Shown here: piece after piece, positions 20,702 to 56,600 of the stretch
Position numbering within the stretch: the first letter of the stretch is position 1
How the letters are laid out: each line of letters opens with the position of its first letter
NCBI GenBank assembly: GCA_964187785.1
Contig: OZ076416.1
Span: forward strand, 54,250,001-54,314,000
Direction: 5' to 3'
Length of the DNA: 64,000 bases
Source of the DNA: Amphiscolops sp. MND2022
Lineage: Eukaryota
Made by a program: the position numbers and the translations under genes
The notes under the pieces: model-generated
Database searches by the model: none
Seen by the model: the letters and a program-made list of their open reading frames with translations, nothing else
Told to the model about the DNA's origin: nothing

Positions 20702-23700
20702 ATGGCCGCTGGAGAATTATCGGAAGGAGAGGTTGCATCATTAGTAGAAGCGGCAGAAGGAGCGTTAGCTGAGCTATCCAGTTTAGACCATTTGTCGGAC
20801 GAGGAAGGTCTCGTTGCATCAGTGGACGAATTACTAGAGGGTGCGACTCATTCGGTATGTTGTCAGTTTGCCGGGCGAGTAGATGAATCCAATGTGGAAA
20901 CCGCTACTACTTTGCTGGGAAATAGCTCTCTCTAGTGAATTCCGTGAGTACTCCAACAAATTTTCGTATTGTTTTCTTTGTATTGATGATCTGTTGATAA
21001 GGGCAGGCATTTATCATTTTGTGTTTAACTTCGGAACTCATCAAGGTAATGTGTGTGTGTGCATAGCATCGTTAATGCAGGATATGATTAATGAGCGGCA
21101 CTCTGTAGGCTCTTCCCGGGATCTATTACCTTGGGTAGACTGTTGAAACGTTGGTTTTAAGCCGATGAACTGCTTGGCTGATTTTTCCCCATGTGTGTTG
21201 TAGAATCCTTGAATATGACCGATATTGTTGCCATGTTGCGGCGGATGCTACAGTCTAGAGCGTCGTCAGGTGATGTAGCAAGTGTGGGTGCGTGCGAATC
21301 CGAGCTCAGGGGTTACTGCTACACTCAGAGTGGTAAGTGATCAACTTGGTATCTTCTGTATGTTATGGTGTAAGATAGGCATCATTTCAATCATCTACTG
21401 GTAGTACCGTATGACAGTCGTCCCTTGATTTTCACTGACATAAGGGTAATGTTGGAGAGGTCGTTGTTAGGGGTGACGTATGTATGGTGACGTCATTGTT
21501 TACCCTTTTGTAATTTATTCCAGGTGTCGCGAGTGGTTCCGCTTTGAGTGTCAACACTGTGGTGGCTGCAATTACTCGGTTGGAAAAGGAGTTGGCTAGG
21601 GTTGTCAAGGCAACAGTTGAATCCACCCTGGGTCGGTTAGGCACTGTGGGCGCGCTAGCTGTGGATGATTTCGTTCAGCGATTGGTCACGGCTGTATCGC
21701 AGTTGAAAACCTGTCAGTGGTTCGCTTGTTGCCGTCCCTGGATACGATGTGCCTGTGACTCTTACATTGCCTGCTGGGATAGTGTCGGTTGGATCTGCTG
21801 TCCCTGTGACTCCCTCAGTTGCTAGTTTGCAGGAGTCAGTCGCGCCATCATTGTTCGGCGAGAGTGCTGTGTTCGGGCCGGCCAGTGTTGCGAAGTCGGT
21901 TTGTGTTACACCTGGTAAGAATCTCATAAGATCATGAGGGGGGTTTTTAGGGGAAAATTTTAAGTGATTACAAGAGCATCTCCATACTAAGATTTAAAAG
22001 TTTTTTTTGAGTTTCATTTGTTTGTTGCAGCGCGTACTAAAAAGATCAAGACGCTGAAACCTTCTTACTTTGTGTCGAGTGTTGTGGGCACCTTCGTTGG
22101 TTTTCCTTGCAACAAGAGAGTGATTGATGGTTACGCTCGTTGTCTGCTATGCCGGGCGGACCTGAGCATTGCGGGGCGCGGGATCTCATCTCTGTGGGAT
22201 CATTGGAAGGGTGTGGAGCACACCCGTTTGGAGCAAAAATATCGGATAATGACTCACAGACCGCTCTTAGACAAGTCCTGCAGGCCTGTATCAGCAGATG
22301 AGGATCGCCGGATCAGACTTGCTCGTTCTACCGAACCGCCAGTTTTTATGGAAACTGACCTGAACCTGACAGTCGAAGAGCGCATGGCTATTGAAGAAGC
22401 TGAGGCAACCGAAGGGGCGCGACCACATTTGCCGGACGATAGTGTGGGTTATCTGTGGCTGAATAATTTTATATCTAGTTTCCTGGTTGCGAGGTCTATC
22501 GAGGGGGTGCTCTATTCAATGGATTCCTGAAGAAATTGCATGGCGAATGAACTACATTTCGAGTGCCGGACACTGGACTACGCGCGTTGTCAGGTTATTT
22601 GAGATAGTATTTCTTTAACATGTAGAGGGTCGTACCGCGTTGTTAAATCGTGTATAATGCGATTGTTGGGGTTGCTTTGTGGTTTTAATGTCGTTATGTT
22701 CGGGACGTTATTTGTTATTTAGAGTCTGATACTGTACGGGTGTTACCCGTATGTTGTGGAGCAGTTGGATACCCTTGTGGAGGCGAGTTCATGTTTTGGC
22801 GTCAGCATCCGTCGGAGTGGCTGGCAGTGGCGTGGTGAGCTTCACATCATCGGCAATCATGGTGTGAAATCGATGGTGCTCGCTCTGGTGACCGATGGAA
22901 CTGGATGGGAGAAGAGGATGCTGGGTAACGTGGTACCCTTGCTTGCATGTCTGAAGGACAGAACATTGCTAAAAACAGTGGCGGTCGAGGGAGAGACTCA
23001 CGTTGGGAGAGCAGTGGCGGGCATGGTAGCTCCCAAGACGCCTCTCGTGGTTGGGCTGCTAACGGCAAAGTCAGTTTTCAATGAGGTGCAGAGGCAATTC
23101 CGGGTGGAATTTGCAGGATTGGACCCGCTCAGTGTCTTAGAATACTTCCGTGTGAGAATGCTACCTGTAGTCCAGGAGAAGTTTTTGGATCGATTGCCGT
23201 TGTTACGACAGGTGAATATGTTATAAAGTAATGCAAGTAGTTTGCTGAAGTCGCTATTTGTGACTTTAGCTTCTTTTATTTTTGTTTTTTGGAGTTGCTA
23301 AGTGTAGTATAAGGTTTATGTATTCGGACAGCTCTTTGGAGGTTGGTTTTGAAACGCAATTTTGTTTCTGTTGTTCTAGTATGTACGTGTCGGTGGAGAG
23401 GACATCACTCAGTTAGCATCCGTCTGTGCAGAAATTGTGGAGTACTGGAATGATTTATCGTTGTACTTCGGGACTCATCGTCCAAACGTCACCTCAGAAC
23501 TACGGCCGATTACACCACTGGAAATCCAAGTGTTCAAAGACGCGATGATTCGTCCTCGGTTTGCTATCTTGCGGCTCGTTTTGGATTTAAGTGAGTGAGA
23601 CAATAAGTTGGATAGAGGAAGGAGAAAAAAATGTTTTTTTTGAGTTATCTTTTCCGTCGTAGTAGTGAGGACTCATTTGCGGTGTTAAGGCTACTTTTGT

Positions 23701-25082
23701 ACTTTACTTTGTTTGCAGTGGTGAAGCATTGTCCTCGACTGTGTGGACGTGGTCGAGACTACGGCGTTGTTGTGGAGAGGGAGCTAGCTCACTTATTGCG
23801 CGGGTTAATGAGGTTCATTTACCCAGTTACCAGTATTCCTGCAGAGTACGAGATTACAGCATTGCTTCAAGTTATTGACTCTGATTGTGTGGATGTCGAT
23901 GCCCATTTGTACAAGAAACATTTCGGGCAATATTTCCTCTACGACATCAGTTCCCAATTATCCTTCTTTTATAAGGCAGTACAGAAGATGCTGGTGGGTT
24001 TGTGTCGTGGGTTAAGTGGATTGTGGCAACGGACCTGGCCGAATCATCTAAGTTTAACACCGTTTGATCCAGTACTTATACACCAGGGTTCGGATGATCG
24101 TCGTGTGGACTCATTAGTGGAGACCTGTGCTGTATTGACTGCCCACGGACTAGTCGATCTGGACGACGGCGGTGTAGTACAGCAGCAGTACAGAGAAGTC
24201 ACACAATTCTTTAAGAAGCGGTGGTCGTTTTGTGTGGACGAACTTCCTGCTGTGGACGATGTGATTGCTATGTGGCTTTCTTATCCTCATTGGAGTCGGT
24301 GTGCTCAATTGCGCCAAGTAGTAAACCTAGTGCTCAGTGTGGTTGTTGTCAGTAGTTATCAGGCTGAGTTTGTTGACAACGCCGCTACAGCTTTGGACCC
24401 TGATGAACTTGCTTCGAGCTTACATTTAGTTCGTAGTTGGTTCGGACATTCCTTCGTTGGAAAATCACGCCGTGATTTACGTGGCCTAATGCGCATTGCC
24501 GAGACGACGGACATGCAAGTCTCTCGTCTGTCCGATAGTGTTCGGGCCAAGCCCTGGGACCAATTACTGAAAGTCGGGCTGGATCAGAGCTTATCATTTT
24601 GCGTAGCCTTATTGGATAAGGGACCCGAGGCACCTGTAGTGCCTATCGTGGATGAGTACAGGTTGTTTATTCTCGCACAACTGAATGTGATGGAGGTCAT
24701 GGCAGCTAGCCCTATTCGTGTTCCTCCCAAACTTACTGCACTGCCGTCAGGATCAGGAAGTAAGTCTAAAAGGCCTCGCAGTCAATCTGACGTGAAATTG
24801 AAAACGCCTAATAAGGATGCTAATGTGGTTGCGTCTACTATTTCTAAATCTGCCATACTGTCAAAGACTCGTGGTCTCATTCGCAGGAGTAGTGGGAGGA
24901 AAACGCCGTCGTCTACAGGACGTCGAACTGGAGGGAAACCTCAAAGCGGCAAAAAGCTAGTATTGTCATTGGTTGCTAGTGAGTCGGCCGATCAAGAAGA
25001 TCAGTTAACAGATGACGGTTTAGTGAAAACCAGTCGTCGGGGAAAACGTACTATGAGGATCGAATCGTCTGACGAATCCTAA
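20702..25082 (+). pseudogene. Element 1 antisense multi-exon gene: BED-like zinc finger plus hAT-transposase-derived protein; two frameshifts and one nonsense codon in this copy
   Basis: Phase-compatible GT-AG exons 20702-21045, 21204-21332, 21524-21914, 22031-22593, 22723-23211, 23380-23590 and 23719-25082. Zinc finger CLLCRADLSIAGRGISSLWDHWKGVEH. TGA at 22528-22530, an extra A near 21708, and a probable 2-bp slip in (CT)n near 20930 (a 28-nt intron at 20855-20882 is an alternative). Confidence 0.8.
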
Positions 25083-26684
25083 TGAGAGAAAACTCTGTAT
25101 GTGTTGTTATCAAACTTTTGACTGATATATTTACAATGGTTTGGCATTGTGTTCTGTATGTATTGCCCTTCATTCTTTGTGTTTCCCTTTTTTTTTGTTG
25201 GAGTTATACTCTCACCAGATGCTTGAAGATTTGTGTGAAGGCACTACATGTGTTGTTTTACACGTTTTTGCTCTGTACTTAGTATGCTGTTGTTATCGTT
25301 ACGTTTGTTTGGACTCTGTCCTTTCTTGGCTTAGTAGCTCGGGTAGAATTTACATGTTGCCTGTATTATACTAATTTTTTAGCCTAATTTGCATGTAAAC
25401 TTAGATAGCTGGTCTCAAAATGTTGGAGCGATAGGCTCAGCTTTGCAAGTCGTTCAAGTTCTAGTAGAGTAGTCGCCTAGGTAACTACCATTGAAAAGCT
25501 CTCACTTACCAAGTGCCATCCTCGTGTCGGCGTTGTTCATGATTATAGCGTACATATGACAGAGGTGGAAACTTGGTGGGTGGGTGGAGTCGCTCAACTC
25601 CTACAGATGATTTGAACTTTTGAGTAGCGGCTTTTATAGTGCTCTAGTTGGTTGTTTGACAGGTGTTTACTAACTTAGGTGTCATTCTAATCTGTCAGTT
25701 CATGTCGAGTTTTACATGTATTCATTTCTCATGTAGCGTTATTCTTGACGTCGTCATCGTTGATGTGTGTCATGCGACGTCATCACTCGTGTCGTGTGTC
25801 ATGTGTTAACGTCAATCTTAATAGTAGATGGGTTTCCCCATAGCCATTAAACTTTTTGACAAGGGGTGGTGAGTACCATCCCTTGTTACGAATCTTCGGT
25901 GATGTAGTGAATAAGACTGCATGTTTTTTGTTGTTCTGTCCTTCCTGCCGCGAGGCGAAGCCTACGAATCAACAGTAAGAACAAAAGTATCATCACCTGA
26001 ATTCGATGTAGAGGTGACGACTGCATTTTACTGTCCTAGGAAAAGTTTTATATGTTGTTCATTGGATTGGGAAGTTTATTTGCCGTCGCAAAAACCCATA
26101 CAAAACTAACACCGAATCCACTTGCTAAAGAGCAAGCTTCATCTGAATGTTTGTACAACCACACAGACGCGCATTTGACGACGCACCCACACAGCCGAAC
26201 CACATCATGATTTCCTGGGCGGAAGTGCGGGACTAGATTTTGGCGGCGTAACTTAACTGAGGCAGCTATCTCTTTTGCATGTTCGGTTGTGTGTTATCAC
26301 TTTTGCTAAATTAGTTTATTTCTGTCGCAATAAAGTAGGTAAGAACAGAATTGCAAAGCAATGCCTTTGAAAGCGTGTGGTTGGGGTTTTCTGTGAATTG
26401 CATGAATTAGTAGCTCGTTTGGATGTGTTTTACATGTACTTGATAATTTCCGGTTGATGTGATGTGGTGTGTATGACTGCATTGCATGTAGTTACTTTTG
26501 CGCTTAGCTGTCTCGGTAGAGAGTAACACTATACTCTGCCGGTAAACTCAAGTATGTCGGACAGTGAGTATCAGTCGTCACTGAATGGCGTAAATTAAAC
26601 TAGGTAATTTAAAGGTATGATTGATGCATGTGGTGATGTAGACTACATTGAATTTCATGAAAAATAAATTTTAACGGAATCCAA

Positions 26685-29600
26685 CTAAAACTCTGTGGAT
26701 TTGCGTTGCATGAATTTTACTAGTGCTGGTTTTGCATGTAGCTCGTGAACGAGGAAGTTATTGTATGTTTTTGGTACAGGCGCTTCTCTAAGGCTATATC
26801 TGGTAACATTGTTTCGCGTGATTGGTTCGGGTGCTCCAGGTGAGGATGTGGTTGGTCCTACATCATTGTTGATCGGCAAATTCATTTCTTCAGGCAGACT
26901 TTCAGATTCAGCTTTTTCAGTGTTGTTTGTGTGAACGGTATCTCGTAATGGCTCGGGCATAGGTGGAATCTCGTACATTTGTTCCTGTTCATACGAGATA
27001 ATACCAAATTGTACGTCGGTCATGTCGGATTGTTTGTCAGGGTGAACTATATCGGGTAGAGCGTTCGGCAGAGGTGGAACCTCGTGCATTTGTTTGCGTT
27101 CGTGATAGATTGTTCCGTGTTCTCTATCGACACTCTCAAATTCATTAGTGTCGGTTTCAGTTGTGTTTACAGCCGGAGTTAGTATATCGGGTGCAGGCAA
27201 GTTTTCGTTAAAAATGGTTTGGTCGTCGGTAGCGTCTGGATCACTATAGTGTTTTTTCGCATCGTCATCTATGTCGCCAATGGGGTCGTGTGGTACGAAT
27301 GGGCGAAGCCGCATTCTATGTACACACTGTGTTCGGAATGTACCCACCTTTCTAATGATGTAGTTTGAATGTGATAGGACTTTGACTACCTTGTAGGGAC
27401 CTTCCCATTTAAAGGAGTTGAAGGGAATTTTGTCAGAATGTGTTGCAATTTTAGGATTCAATAGGAAAGCAAAGTGGTTTACTTTCAGTGGCGATGCTTG
27501 CGCTTTTCGGTCGTAGTACGCCTTGTATTTGTGGAAAGCCTTGATGATGTTGGCGTGTGTCTCCTTAAACTTTGTATTCTGGTTGTCCACTAATGTTTTT
27601 GTGTCAACAGTGTTTCGTGGTAGATTCAGAGGGTTGCTAAATTTCAGGTCTAGAGCGTTGTATGGCACTCGGCCGTGGAAGACTTCAGTTGGAGAACACT
27701 TTAAGGACTGATGATAAGTTGTGTTATGCGCCATAACTGCAAGGTTAACATATCGGTCCCACTGGGGACGGTCCGCAGAGACGTTTATTTTCAGAATCTG
27801 TTTTAAACGTTGGTGTGACCTTTCGACCATCCCAATAGATTGGGCGTGTTTGATTGTCGCGTGTGAGACCTTGATTCCGGCTCTGTTCATTAATTCGGTT
27901 ATAACTTGTGAAGTGAAAGCAGAGCCTTTATCGGTGATAATGTGCTTCGGTATGTACGCATGCTTTGTGAAAATGTCTAGCAGAGCATCAACGACGGATT
28001 TCGTATCAGGTTTGCGGATCGGGATAGCAAACAGGTAACGTGAAAAATAATCACAAGCCGTCAGGATGTGTGAGTACCCATTAGATCGCGGTAACTCACC
28101 TACGAGATCAATTTCAAGGATGTCTTCAGGGCCGTTGCAGGGGTCGTATATTGGTTCAAGTGGAGGTACTAGAGTATTAGGTTTCGCAGGTTTTGCTTTG
28201 ATACATTCTTGACAATTGTTTACAAACTCTTGCACTTTTTCAGTTAGGTTTGGGATGTAGTACCGTTTCCTTAGTTCACTTAACATTTTGGAAGCGCCAG
28301 GGTGTCCCTGCATGGGGTCGCCATGCATCGTCCTGATTGTGGCTTCAGTAGTTTCTGGAGGAACTACAATTTGTCGGTAAGCTAGGTGTCCAACGTCGTC
28401 AAAAAACTGTCTGTACAAGACGTTGTTAACCACTTCAAGTCTTTAAAGGTTCTTGAACGATTTTTGGAAAAAGGTACTTTCAAAGTTCACGTGGTTAGGA
28501 GGTGTTTCTTGGACAGTAAGGATCCTAATTACACGTTGTACGTCACTACTTTCGCCTTGAGCCTTAACAATTTCTGAAGCCCCCGAAGGGCATACCTGAT
28601 TTACCATGTGGACCTGGTCCCATCGGTGAAATCGGGTGAAGAGAAGAGTTGGGTCAGAGGGCGTCACAAATGGTTGTATCTGGGACCTGATCTCCTCGAT
28701 ACGTCTGTCGTATTGGTCGTTACTTTCACGCTGTTGTTGCGGGAACATTGTCATCAGTGTTTGGATTGTCTGGTTCGGTGACGTGGCGACATCTGGTACA
28801 TCATGATCGTCAGGGATGTACTCTTCCTCGTCATCGTCTTGCTTGGGCGTCTTGGATGCCAGGTCGATTTCCACCTTGAAGACCGGTATCTCATCGTGTA
28901 ACTTGAGGTGGATCCTGTCTGCTGGGTCGATATCGATCCTCGATAGGTAATCGGCAGCTGGGTTCTCGACGCCGGGGACGTGGGCTAAGACGAAGTCGAG
29001 TTGGAGTGCTTGATCGCAGTAGTTCCACAACTTGGGTGGTATCCGCTTTGACTGGAAGAATCTTGTGAGGGCTCTGTTGTCTGTCATGACAATGGTTGGT
29101 TTCTTCACACCCCACAAGATATGAGCAAACTCGTCGAAGGCGAAGTGCATAGCCAGGAACTCCTTCGCGTACATCGTGAGTGACATCTGGCCCTCAGTGA
29201 ACCTTTGTGAACCAAACGCCACTGGAGCATATGACCTCGTCGGACCTTCGCTAGTTTCAGTGTAATCTTCTATCAAGAGGACACAACCGGCTGCGTGCTC
29301 ACTGGCGTCGCACATGATCACCAATTGCTTGTCAGGAAGTGGTAACCTCAATGACATCTTAGCAGCGTTTGCCAAATTTTCGTTGATGTCAAATATTGCG
29401 TCTTTGTGGGCTTGCGTGAGTTGAAATTTTACGTCCTTTTGCAACAACTTGTATAGGGGCACTAACTTTTCGGCTAGTCTCGGTATGTACTGCCGGTAGA
29501 ATTGTACAAATCCAATGTACCGCTGAAGTGATTTCACTGACGTCGGCAGTTTGATGTTTTTCAGGAAGTCGTCAATCTTCTTCTCGATGGGCCCGATGCC

Positions 29601-31701
29601 TTTACTGGTAATGCTTCTGCCAAGGAATTCGATTTCGGGGTGACCAAATGCACACTTCGACATCGAAAGTTTGAGACCTGCTTGTCTGACTTTGGTGAAC
29701 ACGGCCTCTATGTTGTCGACTAATTCTTCAACAGTGCTGGCTGCCGATTTCGTCAACGTACTGCGCACACTTGTCAGCTTTGACCAGAGGGTCCAAGTAC
29801 TCTCGAACAGTACTATTGAAAGCTGACAGGGACCGGTTCAATCCTTGGGCCAGTCTGAGGAAGGCGAACGTCCTGCTCCCAAAGTTGAATGCAAGCAACT
29901 GAATTGATTGCTCGTCTGCCATCTGCAAGCAGTGATACGCTTGCGAACAATCCAGTTTGCAGAAGTATCGCTTCCCAGCCATATGTTGTGCTGCATCGGC
30001 CATCGTCGTCACTGGATGGTTATGCTGGTTATAGTCATTCTTCAACAGGTGATTGATCCTCCTAAGGTCTACGAGTATTCTCAGTTTTCCATTCGGTTTA
30101 CGCTGGGCGAAGATGGGTGATGAGTACTTGCTGTACGGTAATGTTGTGATTATGCCGTACTCTGGCATCAACGCCAGTTCAACTAGGAGGTCGTCTTTCA
30201 AGTTCGTCGGTGTAGGCATACTTTGTGCATAGACTGGCTCGTCGTGTTTAGGAGTCAACTTTATCTTGAATTCGGTGTTGATTCCAATATCCAGTCTATG
30301 CCTGGCGAAGATGTCATGGTACTTAACCAATAGGGCCTCAACTTGCTGCTTTTCGTGCGGGCTCAGTATTGATTGTTCCCACTGAAAGTTTGCCAGGAAT
30401 TCGTGTCGTTGCTCTTCGCTCGTCGTCGGATCAAGTTTCTCCTGTTCCCTGAGTTTGATGATCTCCTCATAGATTCGTTTCTCAATCTTGTTCAGTTTTG
30501 ATGGGTCGTCACACGTCTCAGGGGTAGGGTACCATCGTCTGTCTGATTTGGCAGTAGGGTCCTGGAAAATCTGGTTCAGTACAGCTTCAGCTTCGTCTGG
30601 GTACTGTGAGATCAGATTCAGTTGATGGTCGGTCATCGGCTGCAGATTGGTTGCTTGCTTCTGCGTCAATATTTTGAAGGATGCTACAGCCGTGCCCACC
30701 TTGATCGGTATCTGATAATCTAGTGGATTGGTAATCTGGACATGAGTCCGGCCCTCCTGGGTTTCGCTGAGAGCTGGCGACACCAGTAGGTTCGTGCGTC
30801 GTTCAAATGCAGGTAATCCTTCGACTGTCCCGGTGATGTCGCCTAGATCACGTTCAATCACCACTGGAGTGAACACTTGTTGGTTTGGTTGAAGCACTAT
30901 CTTCTGGGTGGTCTTCAGTTCTAGTAGTTTATTTTTGAATCTGCCGTTGACTGATCGCAATTGGAGTGTGATGTCCGGGAAATTGACGATGTTGTTGGCG
31001 AGGTCTAGGGTGACTGAGTACTTTTTAAAGAACGACATTCCTATGAGGATGTTCCCCATCGTCGGGACGACCATGAACGTTTCCTCGAAGATTTTGCCGC
31101 CAATAAAAAATCGTAGAAGGACTTGTTTCCTCACAGGTACAATATTGCCATTGGCGATTTGTACCTTGAACTCTGGAGCAGGGAGTTCTTCAAGGAGGGC
31201 TGCTGGGTGAGCCGTGAGGATTCGACGGAGTTCAGCTTCAGAGGGGGCGCTCTGGATTGCGCGGGTGTCGAGTAGACCGAAGTTCTCGTATGCACGGAAT
31301 TGAAGTGGTACATAGAGCATCCTGTTTTTTCTGTTCAGTTGAAGAGTGGCACTCAGCTGACGTATTCCATACTTCGGCTTTCTTGGTGATTTTGGTGATT
31401 TGGCGGATGTGGTTGTTGTATCAGCGTTTGTTTGGTTAGGGGCTGCGTCATTGGTGGGAGGCTGATTTATGTTGTTGACTTCACTTCTTGGTTTCGTCTC
31501 TTTTGGTTTAATGGAGTAATTATCAGTCGAATGTTGGGTGATGACAAAGTTTGTAGTCTCTTTAGTGTAAGTTGAAGGACGGGACTGCCACCCCGTGTTG
31601 TTTCCAGTATGTAGTCGAGTCTGGGTCATAGTTTGTTGTCGTTGATTTAGTACCGCACTTTTGTATGATTGTGGAGGATGACGTGGCTCTACAAGTTTTT
31701 T
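26685..31701 (-). pseudogene. pol: Element 1 pol (protease, RT, RNase H, integrase), disrupted
   Basis: ORFs 29728-31629, 28443-29768 and 26685-28433. LLDTRA replaces DTGA; YVDE plus an apparent 5-bp deletion near 29745; in-frame TAA at 28443-28445. Integrase H-x3-H...CQEC, EIDLV, TDKGSAF, VERSH and GPY are present. Confidence 0.95.
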
Positions 31702-33212: not shown

Positions 33213-34080
33213 TTTGTATAAAGAAACTGGAGTTTGTTGAAAGAATTTGAATTGAGATTTTAAGGTTGAATTTAAGTTTGAAGAGAAGGATTAAAATCTT
33301 TCGCAATGATGTGGTAAGCAACTGAGCGTCAAGTTATACCAAAAATTAATGGCTGTCTTTTTGCACCTCTTACCAATTTCGCGATGTTGGTCAGGTGACA
33401 ACGTCACGTGACTGTATCGACCAATAGCACTGCACTACTAATGAGGTGTTAATTGCGACATACTGGTGGTTTGTACCATTTGAGGCTTTACGATGATGTT
33501 GCGTTGCCATCGCATAATGTTTGTTAATTTTACTACACTAATTGAAATGAGTAATAATTGACTATAATGGTGGTATATTACCATCGTTACATGTAAATGT
33601 TTAATTTAGAAAGCACTGTGATGTGGTTATATCACCAACATCACCTACATATGGAATGAAATATGTTTATGTTACTAGCGCTATATGATTGAGTAATGAA
33701 ATGAAGTGGTTGAGTAACCAGCATAGCCTGGTTTAACTAATGGAGAAATGAATGAAATAGTTACTTTAACAATGGTTCTGACGATAGTATATCAACTACA
33801 TTACGTGATGCACTTTAGGAATGGGTTGGGAAAGGTCATGTTAAGAGTGTATGATTATAATAAAAATGAGATTGGGTTGTTATGTGAAGACATGTAAATA
33901 ATGTACACATGATATAATTGAAGAGTTTTAGTTTTTTGGTTTTAGTGATGCCGTGTATATAACTACATTCTTTTCCCCATTTGCATTTCGGCGCGTATTG
34001 TCGGTTCATGCTTCATCTTTTACTGATGTTGTTTAGTTGAGAGCATCGTTGTTCAGTATTATCATGCGTCCGGCATGACA
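32882..34080 (-). repeat. Element 1 5' LTR (1199 bp)
   Basis: Direct repeat of 18647-19850; reads TGTCATG...CCGACA on the minus strand. Confidence 0.97.
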
Positions 34081-37727: not shown

Positions 37728-37875
37728 TGGCGCAATGATTTGGTTCTCAAAACAAAAAGAGTTTGTTGCGTTTTTCCGAGAAGATTTGCAGTCAAACTTT
37801 GTTTTTAATTTTTTGGTGTTGTCGTTGAACCGTTTTCTTATTTTGTTTTTTTGTTAGTTCAAGTTTGACCGCAAA

Positions 37876-40630: not shown

Positions 40631-40639
40631 TAATTTCAG

Positions 40640-42685: not shown

Positions 42686-43159
42686 TCTACAAAGTTTCTG
42701 TTCATGCCGTACATTAAACTTCTTTCTGATACACTTTTGAAGATGATTGACCGAAGCAATGATTTCGATAGTTTTATTTGACTCATTTTTTACATGTCTC
42801 GATACAGTCCGTTTTTTCTTCACATGCACTTGATAAATATGTTCGTTAGTGTTTCAGTGAAGCTAACTTAAGCGATTCTAGATTTTCCTGTGAAGTTTAA
42901 AAAACAAGGCGTTCCTTTCGTGTAAATCAGTCCTCTAACACTTTTTGTACATTGTTCTTCAAACAGGCAGTCGATACCCGTATTGCTAAGAACCCCGTAA
43001 ACATCTATCATTAAAATCACATTAAGAACCAAATTGTATCCTGAAAAGACAACAAAAGTGTGATCAAAACACAAATATTTCAAATCCATAATTTTTGCTC
43101 AGTTACCAAATTCTCACCCAATTCCTTTTACTGTTGTTACCCAGAACACATCAGATCAG

Positions 43160-47156: not shown

Positions 47157-48283
47157 TGGTGACAGGAGAAAACGAATCTCCAATCGAAATTCCTGAGTTT
47201 CTCACGGGACGAATCTCATCCAGAAACCATCTCGACAGGTCCTATGAGGATATTAACCTTGACACGACGATCCCAGCGCAAGAGAGAAATGCTCCGGCTG
47301 CTCAAACTGACCCTATTACTCGACTAGCAGATGTCTTGACAACGATGCAGAATAGGCCGACAGCCCAACAACTCACTATACGCCCAGTCAATTCAAACAC
47401 AATGACTTTTGATGGCAAGAGTGAAAAATTCGAGCTGTTTGAGGACCTGTTCCACACGATGATCAAGATGCAACCGGAAATGACGGAACAGATGAAAATC
47501 AATCACTTCCACTCACTGCTGAGGAAGAATGCTCTCCAAACCTTCCGGAACATCAGCTCGAGCAATAGACAGACTTTAGAGGACGTCTTGATAATATTCA
47601 GACGAAAATACGTCAAACCCGAATCACAGGCAACTGCCAAACATAAATGGCACCGTCTAGTCTTTGATCCCAGCACGATGAAACTGCCAGATTTCCTTGA
47701 AGAACTAAATCAAGGGGCAGAAAAAGCATTCGGGGATCAAGCACAAAAGATGATTGACAGTTTGCTTTACGCAAAACTGCCACCGAAACTAAAGCGGTCT
47801 GTTAACATGGCCAGATTAGAAAATGGCTCATACGATGAGATAGTTGCTCATTTGGAGAGAGAATTAGAGCTTAACGCCCTCGAGGAGTCAGACGATCTAC
47901 CAATAGCAACAATGACCTCCTCATCGACTAAGCCCAAAACTCCTCTGTCCACTGGGCAAATGTCAGACATTACCTGCAATTATTGCAAGGAAAAGGGCCA
48001 CATGGTAAAGGACTGCAAAAAACTCAAAAAGAAAAAGGAAAAAGATGCCCAACAAGGCAAACAGACTCAGAAAAAGACGTATCCGGAGTGTGGTACTTGT
48101 GGTAAAAAGAACCACCCCGAGGAAAGATGTTGGCAAGGCGCCGGTGCGCATCTCAAACCCAAACGCAACAGACCAGATGACGCCAATGACGGAAAGCCCA
48201 ATTCAAAGGCGCAGAAACCGCAAAACAAGTCAACATCTTCAAACTCACAATCCTCATCTTCTAATGATGAGTTAAAAAACTAA
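46565..48283 (+). CDS. gag: Element 2 Gag (572 aa) with two CCHC knuckles; the first 197 codons lie in the 5' LTR
   Basis: CNYCKEKGHMVKDC and CGTCGKKNHPEERC; capsid region similar to element 1 gag. Confidence 0.95.
   Translation: MPTTRKQKKTWKSREAEMLSDIENLDIMLGRNHFDRNERNESVNSNRTGRPESLFGDEFGEENENEFPNPENNGPSPNTELGHNSIRECSSVEINRLSSELNSRISREMDEMMNSVSVQIQRAISEAISSQILPQIQNAVMAGSGQLTKERWNVPAERPEGYSEVLQNLEPKNNSKSKQGNDRPKDGFTSTNSRAYDMVTGENESPIEIPEFLTGRISSRNHLDRSYEDINLDTTIPAQERNAPAAQTDPITRLADVLTTMQNRPTAQQLTIRPVNSNTMTFDGKSEKFELFEDLFHTMIKMQPEMTEQMKINHFHSLLRKNALQTFRNISSSNRQTLEDVLIIFRRKYVKPESQATAKHKWHRLVFDPSTMKLPDFLEELNQGAEKAFGDQAQKMIDSLLYAKLPPKLKRSVNMARLENGSYDEIVAHLERELELNALEESDDLPIATMTSSSTKPKTPLSTGQMSDITCNYCKEKGHMVKDCKKLKKKKEKDAQQGKQTQKKTYPECGTCGKKNHPEERCWQGAGAHLKPKRNRPDDANDGKPNSKAQKPQNKSTSSNSQSSSSNDELKN
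47157..47168 (+). other. Primer binding site TGGTGACAGGAG
   Basis: Immediately after the LTR end and identical to the element 1 PBS. Confidence 0.85.
48274..48280 (+). other. -1 ribosomal frameshift heptamer A AAA AAC (gag/pol)
   Basis: TTA AAA AAC TAA at the gag end; the -1 frame CTA ACT TTG CCA is the pol frame. Confidence 0.82.
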
Positions 48284-51200
48284 CTTTGCCACGACTCCAA
48301 TACAACGAACTGATATCCGTCCGCCAATACATCAGGTCGGATCCTCCAACGCAAACTTTCCACCAATACAATCAGCAATTGATGGGCTATCCCTCTGTTG
48401 TCTGGCAGCAACAGATGGACAAGGCTACCACCATCACCTATAACAACACCCATTTATTCCAAAAACCAATTCCTGTTTGGGACCCTGACTATACCACTAC
48501 CTTCACTACCCGGTTCAGGCCCATTCCCCTGGTAGATAATTACAATCCAACGTACATCGACCCAGACTACGGCAGAGATCCCTATTGGGACACCGAGATT
48601 TACAACCAAGATTTACTGCAATTCCAGTACGTTCTAGATGATATCGAACATTACAATCGATCAGTCCACGAGAATCCTCCCATCACCCACAATAAGAAGA
48701 CCAGAGCATTAATTGAAAACTGGCAAATGAATGATGGCACGAACCACCCAGTGTTCCCAAACCCATTGGAGACCGAGAACCATGACAACAATACTGAACC
48801 CATACAGCAATCACTACTAGATGAGAAACAATTCCAAAATGTCCTAATCACAAGGGACGGCGAACCAGACTGTATACCTTTGTCAAACAACATCAATCTC
48901 AAATGCAAGAAACGCATGTTGTATTTCCCAATGGACTTTGGGGAATTGACCATTGATGGACTCATCGACACTGGAGCGCTGTCCAGTGCAATTCCTGAAA
49001 TGGACATCCGGAAAATCCGACTTTTATCTCCACAATCTGTTATCCGGGAAGGCCCGCCTCCGAATTTCCAAATTATGGTCGCTAATGGGCAATTGGAAAC
49101 CCCCAAGAGTACCATAGAGCTCAAATTTGAAGTTGGTGACATCGAATTTCACGAGATTTTCATAGTCATGGAACACCTGACAGGTCCGATCATTGGACTA
49201 ATGTTCCTTCAACGAAATCATACAGTTCTGGACATGAGACAAGGAATACTAAATTTCCCGTTCTTTTCAATGCAGCTCAAAACAGCAGACCATAAGTACT
49301 CAAACGTACTTGAACCAATCCTCAACCCTGCTGAAATAACCATTCCGCCAAATGACAGAGTCCTAATCCGAACTAATTCCCTACTCTACCCTGAGAATGC
49401 TGTCACTGGAATTTTGCAACCGAGCGACCTTCTACATGAGGAAGGCGACATCACATTTTGCCCAGCTTTGGTCACTCTGAATGACGGCAATATATTGATA
49501 CCAGTGAACAATTTCACAGACCACCCCTATAAACTCAAAAAAGGACTCCATATTGCCAATTTCTCTGTTATGACGCCAGAACAAATGAAATATGTCAAAC
49601 CGGTGGACCCGGCATCAACCTGGCATTTTTTACAGAATGATCAAGAGCAGGCAGCCCACTATGTCAGCAGTCTCATCAAAACTAATAGAAATCCACAAAA
49701 CTCCGAAAATTACTGGTTCCCAACCACAGAAAATCCTGGAAATCCCGAGGAACATACACCGATACAAAAACGAATCCTCCAGGAATTACAGGCCTTACAA
49801 GACCTCGAGACACTTGACCCTACTCAAAATGAAGAATCACGTACAAAGTTCTTAGAAAATTTCGATTGGAAAGATTCCATCCTTACTCCTGAAGAGAAGG
49901 AGAAAATAGAGGAATTGTTAGTGGAATTCCATGACATCTTTGCACGACACCGATTTGATATAGGCATGAACGAAGACTTCAAGGTGAAACGGACACCTAA
50001 AGACGATTCCCCAGCCTATAGTCAAAGTCTTCCAGCCCCTATCAACTTGAAGGAGGACATCCTAGTCGAATTAGCCATGTTGCACAAATATGGCATAATA
50101 ACCACACTACCGTTCTCGAAGTATGCAAGCCCAATATTCGCCCAAAAGAAACCAAATGGGAAGCTACGACTTTTGGTTGACTTGAGAAAAATCAACATCC
50201 TCATCTCGGATGATTATATAAACAATAATCACCCTGTTAGCACCCTTGTTGATGCCGCCCAACACTTGGCAGGCAAAAAACTGTTCTGTAAATTAGACTG
50301 TTCGCAGGCATACCACTGCCTACCAATGGCTGACCAACGTTCAATCGAAATGCTGGCTTTCAATTTTGCCAGTCGCACATTCGCTTACAGACGCTTAGCA
50401 CAAGGCCTTAGTCGGTCACTATCCGCATTCTCGAGTTTCATGAGGGAATACCTCGACAAAGTCATTAAAGCGGATCAGTGCGCCCAGTATGTCGACGATA
50501 TCGGCATCGCAGCCAATGATGTCGACCACCTCATGACGAACCTGAGAGCAACATTCAAATGCATTCAGGAAGCAGGCCTCAAGTTGACAATGCACAAATG
50601 TCACTTCGGTGCAAAAGAAATTGATTTTCTCGGACGGACTATTACCCCGCAAGGAGTCAAACCCCAGAAACAGAACGTGCAAAACTTTCTGGAAAAGACC
50701 AAATTCCCAAAGTCAAAAAAGGCTTTGCAGCGCTACTTGGGATTCCTGAACTACTACAGGAATTATGTCCCAAGACTCTCCGAACGCCTTGCTCCATTCT
50801 ACAAGATGCTCAAAAGTGACGAAAAGGTCCTAGTATCGAAAGAATTAGTCCAACAATTCGAAGAAATCAATAGAGCGCTAGACAAATGTTGCGACTTAGC
50901 CCTACAGCAACCCATTCCGAACAAGCAAATAGCACTAATGACTGACGCAAGTTTTGGTGCAGCCGGATACGCGGTCTTAATTGAAGATGACCCGAACCAG
51001 AAATTCACGTCACTCAGGAAATCGTATGCTCCAGTCGCATACGGATCGAAAACTTTCACCCCAGCACAGATAAAGATGTCAATTTACGCAAAGGAATTCC
51101 TTGCAATTTATTTTGCATTTAAAGAATTCGGACATATATTCTGGGGTGCGCCGAAACCAGTCATCATCCTTACCGACAACAAAGCAGTCACGAGATTTTT

Positions 51201-53484
51201 CCAAACAAAAATAATACCCCCAGCCCTATGGAACGCGTGTGATTATGTCATTCAGTTCAATTTTGTCATAGCACACATCCCAGGGGCACAAAATACAGCC
51301 GCCGACTACTTGTCCCGATTGGAAGCAGATCCAAAGGACAAATTAGTAATGAAAATTCGTGAAGATGTACAAACACTACCAATCGAAATCAATGTCCAAT
51401 CCGCAGGGGTGTCGCAAGAAGAACAAATCTTCTACACCAATGACGACGATGAGACAGAGGAACAGTATTGGGCAAGAAAAGAAGCAATCAGGAAAAATCC
51501 AGCAACTGATGAGCCCACTGTTACTATACAAACTCTGTCAACAAATCTGGTCAAACAACACCCCGATATACAAGTCCGATTGAGGAAAACGAACCAGATC
51601 ATTATTGAGCAATCCAAAGATACAGTATTACAACAATTGAAGGCAAAACTCCTTCATGAAGACTATTCAGAAAACATACTGCAACAGGATACTCGATATA
51701 GACACTATGCAAATAATCTGGAACGAATCGTACTCAAGGACGAAATCCTGACGAGGCAATATTTTGATGAAACAGGGAATGTTAAATACCATCAAATTCT
51801 ACTCCCGCAACACTTACTCCGGGAATTGCTTCAATCCCTTCACGGGACAGCGCATAAACACCCCGGGATTTCAAAAATGCTACAGGAAATTAGACAGAGG
51901 TATTACTACCCTAGCATGGCTAAACACGTCAAAAAGTGGGTAGAAGGGTGTGAACAATGTGCCAGAGACAAGAGAGTCCCTAACGCAACGATCACACCCG
52001 AGCTGCTCAACTTGCCCGAATGGGACCTTGGACCTGAAGACGCTATGCAGATTGACCTATTGCCGAATCTTCCCCCAAGTGGAGGGTATGAAAATGTCCT
52101 AACGGCAATTGATGTTTTCTCCAGATATTTATTTGCTTACCCTCTCACGGACGCATCAGCTATCAACGTGGCAAAAGCGCTCATTGATATAATGACTAAA
52201 CACTCATATCTACCAACGACTCTTATCACTGATAAAGGTACTGCATTTACTTCTACAATTATCGCGGAAATTACGCAGATTTTGGGCATTACACTCAAAT
52301 GCGCCACGACGAAGCACCCGCAGACAATTGGGAAATTGGAGCGAACTCATGCCTCATTGAAAACAAATCTCAAAATGGCATGTGGAGAATATCGCCGACA
52401 ATGGCACAAATACTTGCCATTAGCAGTACTGAATCATAATACTAGCTATCACGCCAGCATCGGTTGTGAACCGACGAGAGTATTCCATGGAAGAATTCCA
52501 TTTAATATCTTGGATCACAAACTTGGAAATAATCCAAATGAGCAGATTAACCCCACAACCGAATTTGCTGAAGAAATCCAAAACCAGACAAAAATCCTAA
52601 TTGATAAAACGAAACAGAACATTATGCAGTCGTACATCAAGTACAAAGAATATTACGACCGCAAAGCAAAAGCTGCTCCATTGAAGGAGAATGATTACTG
52701 TTTCGTCTTACAGCCGAAAGCGGATCATCAAGGATCAAAAATTCCATTCCGCGATTACCGTTGGGTTGGACCATTTGTAGTCCAAAAGGTTTTGCCAAAT
52801 GAAAACTACATAGTACGAAGGATCAATACGAACAAAACTCAAATTCTGCATCGCATTCGTCTTAAAAGATTCATTCCCAATCAACCGCTTGAGGACAATT
52901 TCCGAGAACAACGTCTACAGCCAGATGAAGAAATTGTCATTCCGCAAGACGACTTATACGTCATAACGTGGGAAACAGACTTCGGCGAACAGCTAGTTAC
53001 ACGAGGCAACGAACCTATTCCGACTAGCTTGCCGAACGGCGAACGACCGAATACGGCAGAAACGAATACAAGTGACGTAACCGAGAATGAAACGGATTAC
53101 ATAATCACGCGAGAAGAATTAAACAACGACAACGCGACACACAGCCGGAATGAACGCTTGGATGATGACGTCACTGAGAGAAATAAAGCTACTGCAGTGA
53201 CAGAAAATACCAAATCTGATTGGCCGAATCCGGCCGTTTCCCCAAAAAACCAAGAAAATTCTTTACCGAGTACGGCAAATGGACCGGAAAATGATGAAAT
53301 TTTTTCAGAAAGAAACCTAATGAATGAAAACGATGCACAAAACTCTCAAAAAAGGTGGGATGATATTATCGTGCCCGAAATATCTGAAAACGATGCTAGA
53401 AATGAAAGTCTGAGCCCTAGAGGAGGGAAATATAATCTCAGGCCTAACCCTAATCCGAACTACTCAGAAGACTTCAGATACTAA
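48280..53484 (+). CDS. pol: Element 2 Pol: aspartic protease, RT, RNase H, integrase (intact frame; ORF-track start 48286)
   Basis: LIDTGA, YVDDI, TDAS, HGTAHKHPG...CEQC, QIDLL, TDKGTAF, LERTH and GPF; ends YNLRPNP. No env or chromodomain recognised. Confidence 0.97.
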   Translation, partial: LTLPRLQYNELISVRQYIRSDPPTQTFHQYNQQLMGYPSVVWQQQMDKATTITYNNTHLFQKPIPVWDPDYTTTFTTRFRPIPLVDNYNPTYIDPDYGRDPYWDTEIYNQDLLQFQYVLDDIEHYNRSVHENPPITHNKKTRALIENWQMNDGTNHPVFPNPLETENHDNNTEPIQQSLLDEKQFQNVLITRDGEPDCIPLSNNINLKCKKRMLYFPMDFGELTIDGLIDTGALSSAIPEMDIRKIRLLSPQSVIREGPPPNFQIMVANGQLETPKSTIELKFEVGDIEFHEIFIVMEHLTGPIIGLMFLQRNHTVLDMRQGILNFPFFSMQLKTADHKYSNVLEPILNPAEITIPPNDRVLIRTNSLLYPENAVTGILQPSDLLHEEGDITFCPALVTLNDGNILIPVNNFTDHPYKLKKGLHIANFSVMTPEQMKYVKPVDPASTWHFLQNDQEQAAHYVSSLIKTNRNPQNSENYWFPTTENPGNPEEHTPIQKRILQELQALQDLETLDPTQNEESRTKFLENFDWKDSILTPEEKEKIEELLVEFHDIFARHRFDIGMNEDFKVKRTPKDDSPAYSQSLPAPINLKEDILVELAMLHKYGIITTLPFSKYASPIFAQKKPNGKLRLLVDLRKINILISDDYINNNHPVSTLVDAAQHLAGKKLFCKLDCSQAYHCLPMADQRSIEMLAFNFASRTFAYRRLAQGLSRSLSAFSSFMREYLDKVIKADQCAQYVDDIGIAANDVDHLMTNLRATFKCIQEAGLKLTMHKCHFGAKEIDFLGRTITPQGVKPQKQNVQNFLEKTKFPKSKKALQRYLGFLNYYRNYVPRLSERLAPFYKMLKSDEKVLVSKELVQQFEEINRALDKCCDLALQQPIPNKQIALMTDASFGAAGYAVLIEDDPNQKFTSLRKSYAPVAYGSKTFTPAQIKMSIYAKEFLAIYFAFKEFGHIFWGAPKPVIILTDNKAVTRFFQTKIIPPALWNACDYVIQFNFVIAHIPGAQNTAADYLSRLEADPKDKLVMKIREDVQTLPIEINVQSAGVSQEEQIFYTNDDDETEEQYWARKEAIRKNPATDEPTVTIQTLSTNLVKQHPDIQVRLRKTNQIIIEQSKDTVLQQLKAKLLHEDYSENILQQDTRYRHYANNLERIVLKDEILTRQYFDETGNVKYHQILLPQHLLRELLQSLHGTAHKHPGISKMLQEIRQRYYYPSMAKHVKKWVEGCEQCARDKRVPNATITPELLNLPEWDLGPEDAMQIDLLPNLPPSGGYENVLTAIDVFSRYLFAYPLTDASAINVAKALIDIMTKHSYLPTTLITDKGTAFTSTIIAEITQILGITLKCATTKHPQTIGKLERTHASLKTNLKMACGEYRRQWHKYLPLAVLNHNTSYHASIGCEPTRVFHGRIPFNILDHKLGNNPNEQINPTTEFAEEIQNQTKILIDKTKQNIMQSYIKYKEYYDRKAKAAPLKENDYCFVLQPKADHQGSKIPFRDYRWVGPFVVQKVLPNENYIVRRINTNKTQILHRIRLKRFIPNQPLEDNFREQRLQPDEEIVIPQDDLYVITWETDFGEQLVTRGNEPIPTSLPNGERPNTAETNTSDVTENETDYIITREELNNDNATHSRNERLDDDVTERNKATAVTENTKSDWPNPAVSPKNQENSLPSTANGPENDEIFSERNLMNENDAQNSQKRWDDIIVPEISENDARNESLSPRGGKYNLRPNPNPNYSEDFRY

Positions 53485-53698
53485 AGATTGAATTTTCCCG
53501 AAAATGGGAGCTCTCTTCCTTCATTTTTTAGTTTCATTTTTTCGGCCCCTTTAGTATCTTTTGAGTAAATAGCGGGACATCTAGAAGACCCCTCGGAAAG
53601 AGAATAAATATGGGATCAGAAAGAAACAAATACAACAACATTAAGAGAATGAACAAAAGTTTACAGTTTCAAAACGTACATAAATACATATGTACATA

Positions 53699-56600
53699 CT
53701 AGTCTTTAGAAGAACCTTGGACAGGCTTCTTAGAAATTGAGGAAAGACTTGAGCTGTTGCTACCCTGCCTTTTTCTTCGCAACTTAGAAGGAATCTTCAG
53801 AGCAGACTCATCGGGGACGGATGAAACACTCCTCTCCTCCAAGCGAACTGAGCGAGCAACAGAGATGGATGTAGTGAGCTTATATGAAGCCAATAAGCTC
53901 TTATAAATTCTGGATCGCCCAAACACATCAACATACGTCCACGGGTCATAATCAGCACCAAAGGCAGACTGTTCGAAGGTGGCACTGAGATGCGAAAATT
54001 TATCCAAATTGGCATCGGTCACGCAACCAGAGATGGAATCAGGAACGGAGGAAAGATAACTTTGACAAGGCAGGACCAAATCAGTAAAGCGCCCACGATA
54101 TCCAGTGGTGTCTACACTCCCAAATAACACAGGAGGATACTGAGGACTGGAACTAGTCAAACACAGACAACACAATTTGAACAAATAAAGCAAATGTTCA
54201 TGAGTCTGGAAGAACTCTAGTCCCATAATGAAGTCGATGAGGTCCTTGGAATTCTCTAGGAGATCGAAGTCAGGGGGGTAGCTCACTCGAAGATGGTCCA
54301 ATAGGGCGATGTATTCCTCCCGGCAAGCATCCTCGTTGGCAGATGAGACCCAAGACCGATGTTGGAAGGTAGCGTATAACAAATCGAAGTGACGAAGGCC
54401 GACTTCTGAAGGTCTTTTGAATAAAATGAAAGGGTCGAAAGCTGCCAACCCCTTCACAATCTCTGATCGTAATCCAGCCTGATTGAGAACCTCCTTCAAG
54501 AGATACTGTACGAAGTGGAGGCCTTCCCTGGCAAAACTGGAAGTTGCCTCATCCGCCGTCTTCTCAATTGCAGCCTTCTCAGACTTCTTATTTAGGTGAA
54601 CGATTTCAGCACTCTGTTTGCTTGCAGTTGCTACTTTGTTCACCAAGCGCAGTCGAACCAGGAAGTCCTCCTCAGTAAGGAACTTGCCTTCACTGACGGC
54701 GAAACCAAGCAAGAGGAACCAATCTTTCTCGACAGGGATCGTTTCAGGCAGATAACAACGGGAGCACAACTTGGAGATGAATCGGCAGACTTCCCCACAA
54801 AGGAAGAAAGTAGCATCTCGTCTGCCTTGAAGGTTGACAACGAAACTGGACACGTCTGAAACACAACCGGTCACATGAAAAAACCCAACCGCATGCCTAA
54901 ATGACTAACCGAGGAAACAGGGCTTACTGCCCTACCAGGATTCAAGAGTTTGGGATATGAAGCTAGAAGCGAGCAGTGATAAACCCAAAAGGTCCGTATA
55001 CTTACAGTCACTGATAATGCGTTGGAAGAATTCCAATTTCACAACAAAGAAGGTGTCGCAGATGAGGGACCATTCAAAGCTCTGAACCTGTAACATGATC
55101 TAAGTAAGTCACATGCAACTGATATCGCCGGTCCATTAACCCATTGACTTGGAAACCAACTCATTGAAATTCAAAAGGCCCGAAGAGGATCCTTACCTGA
55201 TTATGAACCCCTTGCATGCCTTGATGGGGAGTGTGAGCAGTCAGAAAGGAACGCACTGCTTTCCAGTTTTTTGACAAGTCACGACAGAGACCAGGGAGAT
55301 CGGGCAAATTCAGTTTGCAAGTGGAAATAGCCTAAAATGGACCACTATTAAACAGGGAGTCCTGTGTACTAGTTAACACTATCGACGTGTGAAAGGAAAG
55401 ATACTAACTTGAAGTAATTCGGGTGATTGCATGGCCCAATCCTCATCGGCAGCAGATCCTAAGGACACCAGTAAGCTCTTCAACACGGAGAAAAAGTCGA
55501 TTCTGCCGAACACACTATAAGTAGGTTTGCGCATCATGGTCTGCAAATCCAAATGTTCGAATCGAAAACAGCTCTGTACTGCTCGTGGAAATAGTGCACA
55601 TCTGTCGATAGTACAAATCAGCTCAACGGGGCAGCCGGAACAAGCAACTATGTCTGCCTTGTTAGACACGACCGAGAGAAATCTGGAAAGGGACCCCAAT
55701 TCTCCTGTCAAGTCGGTTGAAGGAAGCCCACTTCGACAAACGAAGACTCTACACAGTGAGTCTCCCTTCCAAAATCTCACAGACATTAGCTTGTTGACTC
55801 CAACCCGTTCGTACTCGAGCCCAAAGCACTGTGTTGCCGCTATTTGTTCTGCCATGTCCTCCATGGCACAGTTGAAGATGTGCTGGAAGATCGCCTTAAA
55901 AGAAAATAGGAATATTAATTCGGATATTTACAGTGCACCTCGATAGTGAAAAGAAAAAAACAAAACTACCAACCGAGACTCTATCTTCACTCCAGTCAAA
56001 ATCGCAGTAGCTGGCTTGGTAGTTGGTTAGGGAGCCGACCTGTGACCACATCCGCCGTAAAATAGAAAGGTCTCCCTGATGCTGCACAAAATCTGCGATG
56101 AGGTGAATCTGAGTCTTGGCACGAGACGCTGGAGTTACGAGGGTGGTCGCTGTTCCTTTGACGAAATCGTCGTAAAAGGGGAAACGTTCCCCGATATCAA
56201 CCAACTCGGCATGTATGAACAGAGGAGTTCTTTAGCCAGCTCTATCTTGGTCAGAACTTTGCCGTTTCTGCCCCTCACACGGTGTTGCACCTTGCCAGTG
56301 ACAGGATGGACGCTTTTTAGGTGCTCATAACGCCATCTCTGGTCCTTGCGCAAGTGTTTTTCTGTCCGGTGATGTCGTAGAATCTCCAGAGTGCCTTTGG
56401 TTTTCACGGAAAAATTCTTCTTACAGATATGGCACCAGACCATATGGGGATTGTGCAATGGGTCGGCTGGTCCAGAGATGAAAGATCGGGTCCACCCAAT
56501 CTTCGCAAAGAATTCCTCCTTCATGGGGACCCCTCTAGTGGGCCCGCGACGCTTCTTTTTGGATTCTTTACGAGTCTCGCTTGGACGCGGTACTTCCTGG

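Follow-up and report, generated by a model that had tools for sequence, protein, structure and literature searches.

A spliced antisense gene of probable hAT descent is carried as an exchangeable cassette by Ty3/gypsy retrotransposons of Amphiscolops

A 64,000-nt stretch of the genome of Amphiscolops sp. MND2022 (GenBank assembly GCA_964187785.1, contig OZ076416.1, positions 54,250,001 to 54,314,000; the window) contains two full-length Ty3/gypsy long terminal repeat (LTR) retrotransposons, and in both of them a spliced gene, here called the cargo gene, lies antisense between the integrase and the 3′ LTR. Judged by profile comparison, the two cargo proteins are homologous. We consider it very probable that the cargo gene is an inherited accessory gene of these retrotransposons, with purifying selection, deep co-inheritance with pol and exchange as a cassette. 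The whole explanation, in which a transcript, an origin and a role are added to this evolutionary account, is held with moderate confidence.

Both elements have paired LTRs with TG...CA ends and a 5-bp target duplication (Table 1), and the LTR pair of element 1 differs by 10 substitutions in 1201. After gag, element 2 shows the Pfam domain order protease, reverse transcriptase (RT), RNase H and integrase; element 1 is collinear, and the two pol products are ~52% identical. The sequence TGGTGACAGGAG follows the 5′ LTR of both elements as the putative shared start of a primer-binding site (PBS). A clear polypurine tract was not found before the 3′ LTR of element 2, where positions 59670-59699 are pyrimidine-rich. 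The LTRs of the two elements could not be aligned with each other (best blastn match E 0.02 over 19 nt), as the original prediction, made from the sequence of the window, had said. In both elements gag begins within the LTR and the PBS lies inside gag (46565-47156 and 33212-32882), so 3′ and solo LTRs hold a copy of the gag N-terminus; such copies are found at 60851-61465 and 18645-19055, and probably at 4633-5025.

Table 1. Positions of the retrotransposons, cargo genes and introns in the window
Feature	Position	Strand	Details
Element 1, full-length Ty3/gypsy LTR retrotransposon	18647-34080	-	LTR pair, 5-bp target duplication CTAAT
Element 1 3′ LTR	18647-19850	-	
Element 1 5′ LTR	32882-34080	-	
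Element 1 gag and pol	26688-33212	-	pol interrupted, in three open pieces
Element 1 swapped cassette	20255-25254	+	flanks match L011/L012/L015 at 91-96% identity; interior without stringent alignment
Element 1 antisense cargo gene	20702-25082	+	7 exons, ~1130 codons
Element 1 cargo exons	20702-20943, 21204-21332, 21524-21914, 22031-22593, 22723-23211, 23380-23590, 23719-25082	+	
Element 1 extra 5′ introns	20944-21203, 21333-21523, 21915-22030	+	all phase 1
Element 1 shared intron 1	22594-22722	+	phase 0
Element 1 shared intron 2	23212-23379	+	phase 0
Element 1 shared intron 3	23591-23718	+	phase 1
Element 2, full-length Ty3/gypsy LTR retrotransposon	45418-61442	+	target duplication ATTTC
Element 2 LTRs	45418-47156 and 59700-61442	+	2 substitutions in 1739
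Element 2 gag and pol	46565-53481	+	gag of 572 codons, start within LTR; open pol frame of 1737 codons
Element 2 antisense cargo gene	53699-57985	-	5 exons, ~1290 codons
Element 2 cargo exons	57985-55974, 55894-55409, 55331-55197, 55087-55006, 54855-53699	-	
Element 2 shared intron 1	55973-55895	-	phase 0
Element 2 shared intron 2	55408-55332	-	phase 0
Element 2 fourth intron	55196-55088	-	phase 0; in 32/43 element-2-side copies, 0 element-1-side copies
Element 2 shared intron 3	55005-54856	-	phase 1
Element 2 second conserved accessory open reading frame	58997-59785	+ (sense)	263 aa, runs into 3′ LTR, no Pfam match

The exon-intron junctions were recovered with a purpose-written spliced aligner. 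The original prediction had proposed that three intron positions and phases are shared between the two cargo genes, and all six junction peptides that it quoted were present at GT-AG junctions with the phases claimed. Its end points, 22594 and 55973, mark where the first shared intron of each element begins, and the exon enclosed by introns 1 and 2 is 163 codons (489 nt) in element 1 and 162 codons (486 nt) in element 2, as it had stated. The three additional 5′ introns that it described in element 1 are also real and conserved among relatives, being cleanly called in 16/16, 14/16 and 15/16 copies, respectively. No counterpart of the N-terminal region that bears them was found in element 2; of 42 copies on the element-2 side, 29 have a 5′ region made up of a single open frame of 400 codons or more. 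The 'extra' intron ascribed to element 2 exists but is not a private gain; this possibility was rejected because 32 of the 43 copies of its side have that intron and one sublineage lost it.

Direct tblastx comparison of the two cargo genes gave nothing, and HMMER with a profile of close relatives found no link between them, so deeper profiles were required. When the whole cores of 17 and 42 spliced copies were aligned profile to profile, the probability was 96-98% with E 2e-9 (local mode) at 17-18% identity, and a reversed control gave E 0.4. The last exons alone were aligned from residue 8 in both, with a probability of 94% and E 1.4e-7. MAFFT and all three hhalign modes placed intron 2 of both genes in one and the same column; intron 3 coincided in MAFFT and was one column off in hhalign, whereas intron 1 was matched within a column only by MAFFT and is the least secure of the three. 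By a rough estimate, three introns would agree in phase and lie within one codon of each other by chance with a probability of 1.5e-7, and two with 8.5e-5. Shared introns of this kind establish a common ancestor of the genes only.

To follow the gene through the 1.07-Gb assembly, own-genome searches were run, each with 100-122 scored matches, and a first look gave ~7,850 candidates on the element-2 side and ~1,080 on the element-1 side, which are not copy numbers. We took 63 cargo loci, picked for diversity and mostly with stop-free last exons; two truncated loci (L018 and L052) were left out of the intron tallies, and the profiles were built without copies whose core was short or that had over five breaks. 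The integrase lay tail-to-tail on the opposite strand in 58 of the 63 loci. On the element-1 side, introns 1-3 were called at the exact column in 16/20, 19/20 and 20/20 copies; on the element-2 side the corresponding counts were 41/43, 40/43 and 39/43, with 32/43 for the fourth intron. Where a call was missing, the cause was mostly that a damaged copy had a deletion or a shifted call. The 207 introns were 47-1012 nt long without a multiple-of-three bias (65/73/69 for length modulo 3), and intron bodies were ~50% identical between subfamilies while the splice sites stayed conserved. From this conservation of splice sites we infer that the introns are truly spliced, from an antisense transcript.

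Eleven loci of one sublineage had lost the fourth intron precisely, and intron 3 was precisely lost in L039, L041 and L043 and intron 2 in L039, in each case with collinear flanks. L032 had an imprecise deletion. Because the packaged RNA cannot lose these introns by splicing, the precise losses would be most readily explained if reverse transcription had switched templates to the spliced antisense mRNA. A profile search gave 661 cluster representatives. The family is probably also present in other organisms, since the database sequence P0131 had a best match of only 40% in this genome and 7 of 10 looked-up clusters were located on 2-8 kb ENA/JGI contigs. A metagenome scan gave a single 1.2-kb contig, too short for element context, and longer, spliced database forms were seen in 0 of 4150 candidates, which is weak evidence. 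Four database open reading frames (ORFs; P0126, P0140, P0193 and P0273) read through the intron-3 position and two (P0121 and P0131) start with intron-like sequence; at the level of protein sequence, the read-through ORFs hint at additional independent intron losses.

Some loci had other arrangements. In L004, cargo and pol were on the same strand. L035 had gag directly adjoining the cargo, was without an adjacent antisense pol and is non-autonomous, L017 had the cargo opposite a 1245-codon ORF without a Pfam match and likewise lacked an adjacent antisense pol, and around L046, with introns of 1012 and 453 nt, nothing was detected within 4 kb. The L117-L118-L076-L045-L077 region (G000:C2, ~29.299-29.334 Mb) held an intact four-intron cargo gene and a pol remnant only. 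The 35-kb unit with this L045 cargo has a second copy near C2 56.41-56.44 Mb that is 99.6% identical. It further contains the coding sequence of a CACTA/EnSpm-like protein (DUF1258, with weak matches to Transposase_21 and DUF4218), so a giant DNA transposon may spread the cargo too.

Selection was measured as dN/dS by the Nei-Gojobori method for pairs with dS of 0.3-2. The cargo gene had medians of 0.088 over 6 unsaturated pairs and 0.060 over 48 pairs, with a maximum of 0.12; pol had 0.037. Open frames, splice sites and zinc ligands were retained across saturated synonymous divergence. Thus, the cargo gene is under strong purifying selection. Antisense introns are not removable from packaged RNA, and they therefore persist without selection. 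Long-term selective retention, which had been argued from the shared gene structure, is accordingly real on the evidence of dN/dS, but the retention of introns is no evidence for it.

Trees of cargo and pol were built from 50 copies; nine without a complete adjacent pol were left out (L004, L014, L017, L035, L039, L045, L046, L048 and L063). Four groups, defined after viewing the trees, were clades in both, although support for E2a was low (0.74 and 0.39). The ratio of cargo to pol distance was 4.5-5.0 at the deepest node and 5.5-7.3 at inner nodes, and core identity between cargo clades was 12-19%. The same site and orientation, the four matching deep clades and the similar distance ratios support, without proving, one ancient acquisition before the split of the two pol clades. 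A single capture is what had been deduced from the shared introns, which by themselves prove only common ancestry. Co-divergence of cargo and pol, suggested as a check, held for the deep clades and failed at the tips: within the element-1 side the two distances were uncorrelated (Spearman 0.01), and the cargo topology was rejected for pol (approximately unbiased test, p 1e-79).

The reason for the mismatch was seen in closely related elements. Among pairs with pol dS below 0.5, which are not independent, cargo dS exceeded 1 in 14/20 and 81/97, and within pol clades pol was 95-97% identical compared to 60-65% for the cargo, with saturated synonymous sites. Element 1 and L015 had a pol dS of 0.08, a saturated cargo dS and cargo proteins 64% identical. 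Their sequences agreed at 95-96% identity between the LTR and 20254 and again starting at 25257; no stringent alignment was obtained in between, and the breakpoints at 20254 and 25255 were sharp. As L011, L012 and L015 are close kin, they represent one swap event; a similar swap was found between L033 and element 2 (58327-53511), and in some other copies part of the LTR had been exchanged along with the cargo. All swaps were confined to pol clades. These comparisons show that the cargo gene is a replaceable cassette, exchanged whole by recombination within a pol clade, and that the cassette alleles are far older than the backbones carrying them. Fast cargo evolution alone was rejected as the cause of the gap between pol and cargo, because cargo dS is saturated at pol dS of 0.08-0.4, and strict co-segregation of cargo and LTR was rejected by L011/L012/L015 and L033. 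Upstream of the cargo start in element 1, a non-coding box at ~20000-20275 that is 67-84% identical among divergent copies adjoins the swap breakpoint and is a candidate antisense promoter.

The cargo protein consists of a variable N-terminus, either low-complexity or clade-specific, a CxxC..H..H finger, an alpha/beta domain, a helical region and a basic tail. The zinc ligands were nearly invariant in 59 copies (17 + 42), and Pfam zf-BED reached only E 0.083, below the cut-off. An AlphaFold model of the middle exon (pLDDT 57) had the order helix-three strands-helix-strand-helix-strand, an RNase H topology. On structural re-alignment Hermes came first (Z 5.2, root-mean-square deviation 3.4, 106 residues, aligned to Hermes 149-264), and among the top-ranked rows the Hermes entries stood out by aligning from the first helix. 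The nearest ESM Atlas clusters had DUF4371/FAM200-ZBED5 RNase-like for the middle exon (0.86) and, among those with a Pfam family, Dimer_Tnp_hAT for the last exon (score 0.93). Pfam itself found Dimer_Tnp_hAT in 0 of 35 last exons, and the last-exon structure (pLDDT 61) gave no informative match, which is no proof of a new fold. Foldseek with the middle exon returned only ribosomal L18/L5-type RNase H-like rows at E above 0.002, and a PDB sequence search was empty. Taken together, a hAT transposase, or a host gene derived from one, is the probable ancestor of the cargo protein, although the evidence is weak.

The hallmarks of hAT transposases are a DDE triad and a CxxH motif, and both were seen in the hAT ORFs of this genome. 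In the cargo, the DDE sites, assigned by eye, were E/Q/A/R, S/T/L and no E, the His of CxxH was missing, and no acidic column was conserved there across both clades. No inverted repeats of at least 40 nt were found around either cargo gene, shorter ones being outside the search. Classing the cargo protein as a hAT transposase was therefore rejected; judging from these motifs it appears not to be a transposase and to have lost catalysis. The cargo genes move inside LTR elements, whereas a free hAT element would have terminal inverted repeats of its own and an 8-bp duplication. For a donor, 11 free-hAT loci were chosen from 150 PF05699 matches. They gave a weak match to the cargo in the finger only (E 0.007), and since the five longest ORFs were unbroken over 597-697 codons, there were no donor introns to compare. 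The route to a donor by way of intron matching thus led to none among the 11 loci. L045 was also tried as a free hAT donor and rejected, as it nests within the element-2 side and retains a pol remnant.

We propose that the cargo gene has its own antisense transcript, which would be spliced by the host spliceosome. Running backwards in the packaged RNA, the introns would persist through retrotransposition, and the rare precise losses would reflect reverse transcription with the spliced antisense mRNA as template. The hAT-derived protein would have lost catalysis and kept a BED-type zinc finger, an RNase H-like scaffold, the helical region and basic tails. Like ZBED-type factors or the anti-silencing proteins of transposons, it could bind DNA in the nucleus and promote or protect the element's transcription. 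By analogy with these, a role as a helper of the element's own transcription, or of its escape from silencing, is a reasonable but tentative suggestion. A more far-reaching version is rather doubtful: that a DNA-transposon enzyme was domesticated by the retrotransposon clade and turned into a DNA-binding factor without catalysis, encoded by a spliced antisense gene, whose ancient versions may be interchangeable specificity cassettes in conflict with host or rivals, and whose introns may be lost by copying its own antisense mRNA in reverse transcription, which would make the family a natural archive of RT-mediated intron loss.

Several observations weigh against this explanation. The structural models are of low confidence (pLDDT 57-61), Hermes was tied with glucokinase on re-alignment and ranked 24 in the wide search (Z 4.4), no Pfam family matched the cargo above the cut-off, and hhalign against two hAT alignments gave probabilities of at most 1.4%. 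The position of intron 1 depends on the method: the offset is one column with MAFFT but 14 columns, spanning a gap, with hhalign. The cargo gene is broken in both window elements: in element 1, exons 1 and 3 each have a frameshift and exon 4 an in-frame stop, and in element 2 there is a single frameshift in exon 1. There was no adjacent antisense integrase in 5 of the 63 loci, and because loci were selected by cargo matches and were mostly stop-free, counts of intact copies are biased. No CpG depletion was found in LTRs and pol (observed/expected 0.91-0.95), and hence no sign of DNA-methylation silencing to counter. Finally, the LTR does not follow the cargo type in L011/L012/L015 or L033, which argues against strict matching of a cargo to its own LTR in a lock-and-key manner as for VANC.

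The broken window copies, the automatic retention of antisense introns and the pol-less copies (L035, L045, L046 and L017) would fit a functionless nested hAT remnant that merely hitchhikes. This is extremely improbable, since dN/dS did not exceed 0.12 in any of the 54 unsaturated pairs, which refutes it unless the alignments are wrong, and since frames, splice sites and zinc ligands were kept. Independent captures of the same intron-bearing donor, one in each pol clade, would account for the wholly different N-terminal regions and their introns, the low core identity and a second sense ORF on the element-2 side only, and no outgroup was found. However, position, orientation and PBS start are the same, and the deepest cargo/pol ratio resembles that of inner nodes, so that we regard two captures as improbable.

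Other functions were also considered. The cargo protein might tether or chaperone the pre-integration complex, in nuclear import or target choice. Its predicted DNA-binding finger and basic tails would suit such a task, swaps occur only within pol clades as if the cargo must fit a partner on the backbone, and CopiaMBD, in which a captured methyl-CpG-binding domain (MBD) guides insertion, is a precedent in the available text (PMC6673714). This is unlikely: no target motif was seen by eye in 17 LTR flanks, a small sample, confinement to pol clades is also expected from the homology needed for recombination, and the cargo would be a separate transcript and not an integrase fusion. A dead transposase-like protein could instead repress rivals or hAT transposons, or limit its own family, with the cassettes as specificity or immunity types. 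The coexistence of very old cargo alleles on near-identical backbones is in line with this, and antisense transcription can regulate through double-stranded RNA (PMC7264820). With low pairwise dN/dS and no similarity beyond the weak finger match in the 11 sampled free-hAT loci, control of competition or copy number is quite unlikely. The inherited, selected accessory gene with a putative role in transcription is thus our preferred reading, and the prediction that it is a functional module of the retrotransposon clade holds, for grounds other than those offered.

Antisense ORFs between pol and the 3′ LTR are known in plant and fungal gypsy elements, and their origin and function are unknown (PMC7264820; available parts of PMC11963269). 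The cargo gene resembles the Retand/Grande-type ORFs in position, antisense orientation, presumed family-wide conservation and proposed DNA-binding regulatory role. In contrast to them it has no TRP28 (PF04195) match, a hAT-like architecture, cassette exchange and 4-6 spliceosomal introns, whereas the accessible text on the plant ORFs describes them without introns or known origin (PMC11963269). It also differs from the env or env-like third ORF, which is in sense orientation, in being antisense in both window elements and in 58/63 loci. The reuse of a BED-type finger and RNase H-like scaffold for DNA binding or regulation would be shared with hAT-derived host proteins of the ZBED/DREF and LIN-15B types, as far as the available parts of these papers go (PMC3606216, PMC12570147). 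Those are host genes at fixed loci, whereas the cargo is carried and selected within a retrotransposon, and no sequence match to them was found. According to accessible sections of PMC10368747, hAT transposases have an N-terminal BED finger with CCHH or CCHC, and the cargo is like Hermes (PDB 2bw3/8edg) in that its core opens with a CCHH finger and in a predicted helix before an RNase H-like sheet. Unlike Hermes, it lacks a conserved DDE or CxxH and is not a free element, and the similarity is below significance.

Animal LTR elements with captured extra genes are known from the available portions of three papers (PMC5408684, PMC6673714, PMC6431247). As in the rotifer ORF3 elements (PMC5408684) and CopiaMBD (PMC6673714), the latter under Ka/Ks below 0.1, the extra coding sequence here is captured and modular. 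Those elements carry other proteins (GDSL, DEDDy, env and MBD), and the same portions describe no intron-bearing antisense gene. A functional analogy exists with VANC of Arabidopsis Mutator-like elements (MULEs), a transposon-encoded accessory factor which, in the accessible text, has a MAIN-like fold origin and a DNA-transposon host (PMC13547354); the cargo region shows no CpG decay. A literature search covering work outside subscription papers, Repbase and supplements found no multi-intron, hAT-like, swappable antisense gene.

The second accessory ORF of element 2 was matched in 20/20 element-2-side loci tested (28-98%, a few of them frameshifted) and in 0/16 element-1-side loci. Elsewhere in the window, a 589-codon low-complexity ORF at 5833-7599 (+) has Cys/His-rich finger-like motifs at its end and no Pfam match. 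A long interspersed nuclear element (LINE) lies beside element 1 at 34932-38760 (-), with an open endonuclease-RT frame of 974 codons and a 294-codon upstream ORF, and decayed LINE pieces are at 13646-16952 and 141-1018. The stretches 7732-8305, 9822-10708, 12521-12929, 40452-40773 and 42217-42686 hold a degenerate palindrome together with several members of a non-autonomous repeat family that contains internal tandem units.

The cargo family gives a candidate, hAT-like origin for antisense extra ORFs, a class whose origin and function are unknown (PMC7264820). Its many copies, the natural swaps on near-identical backbones and the pol-less copies would allow a direct test of antisense ORF function, and the precise intron losses within a reverse-transcribing element offer a system for testing RT-mediated intron loss. 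If the ~7,850 and 1,080 candidates reflect abundance, this would be a major repeat-borne protein family that is likely mis-annotated as host genes.

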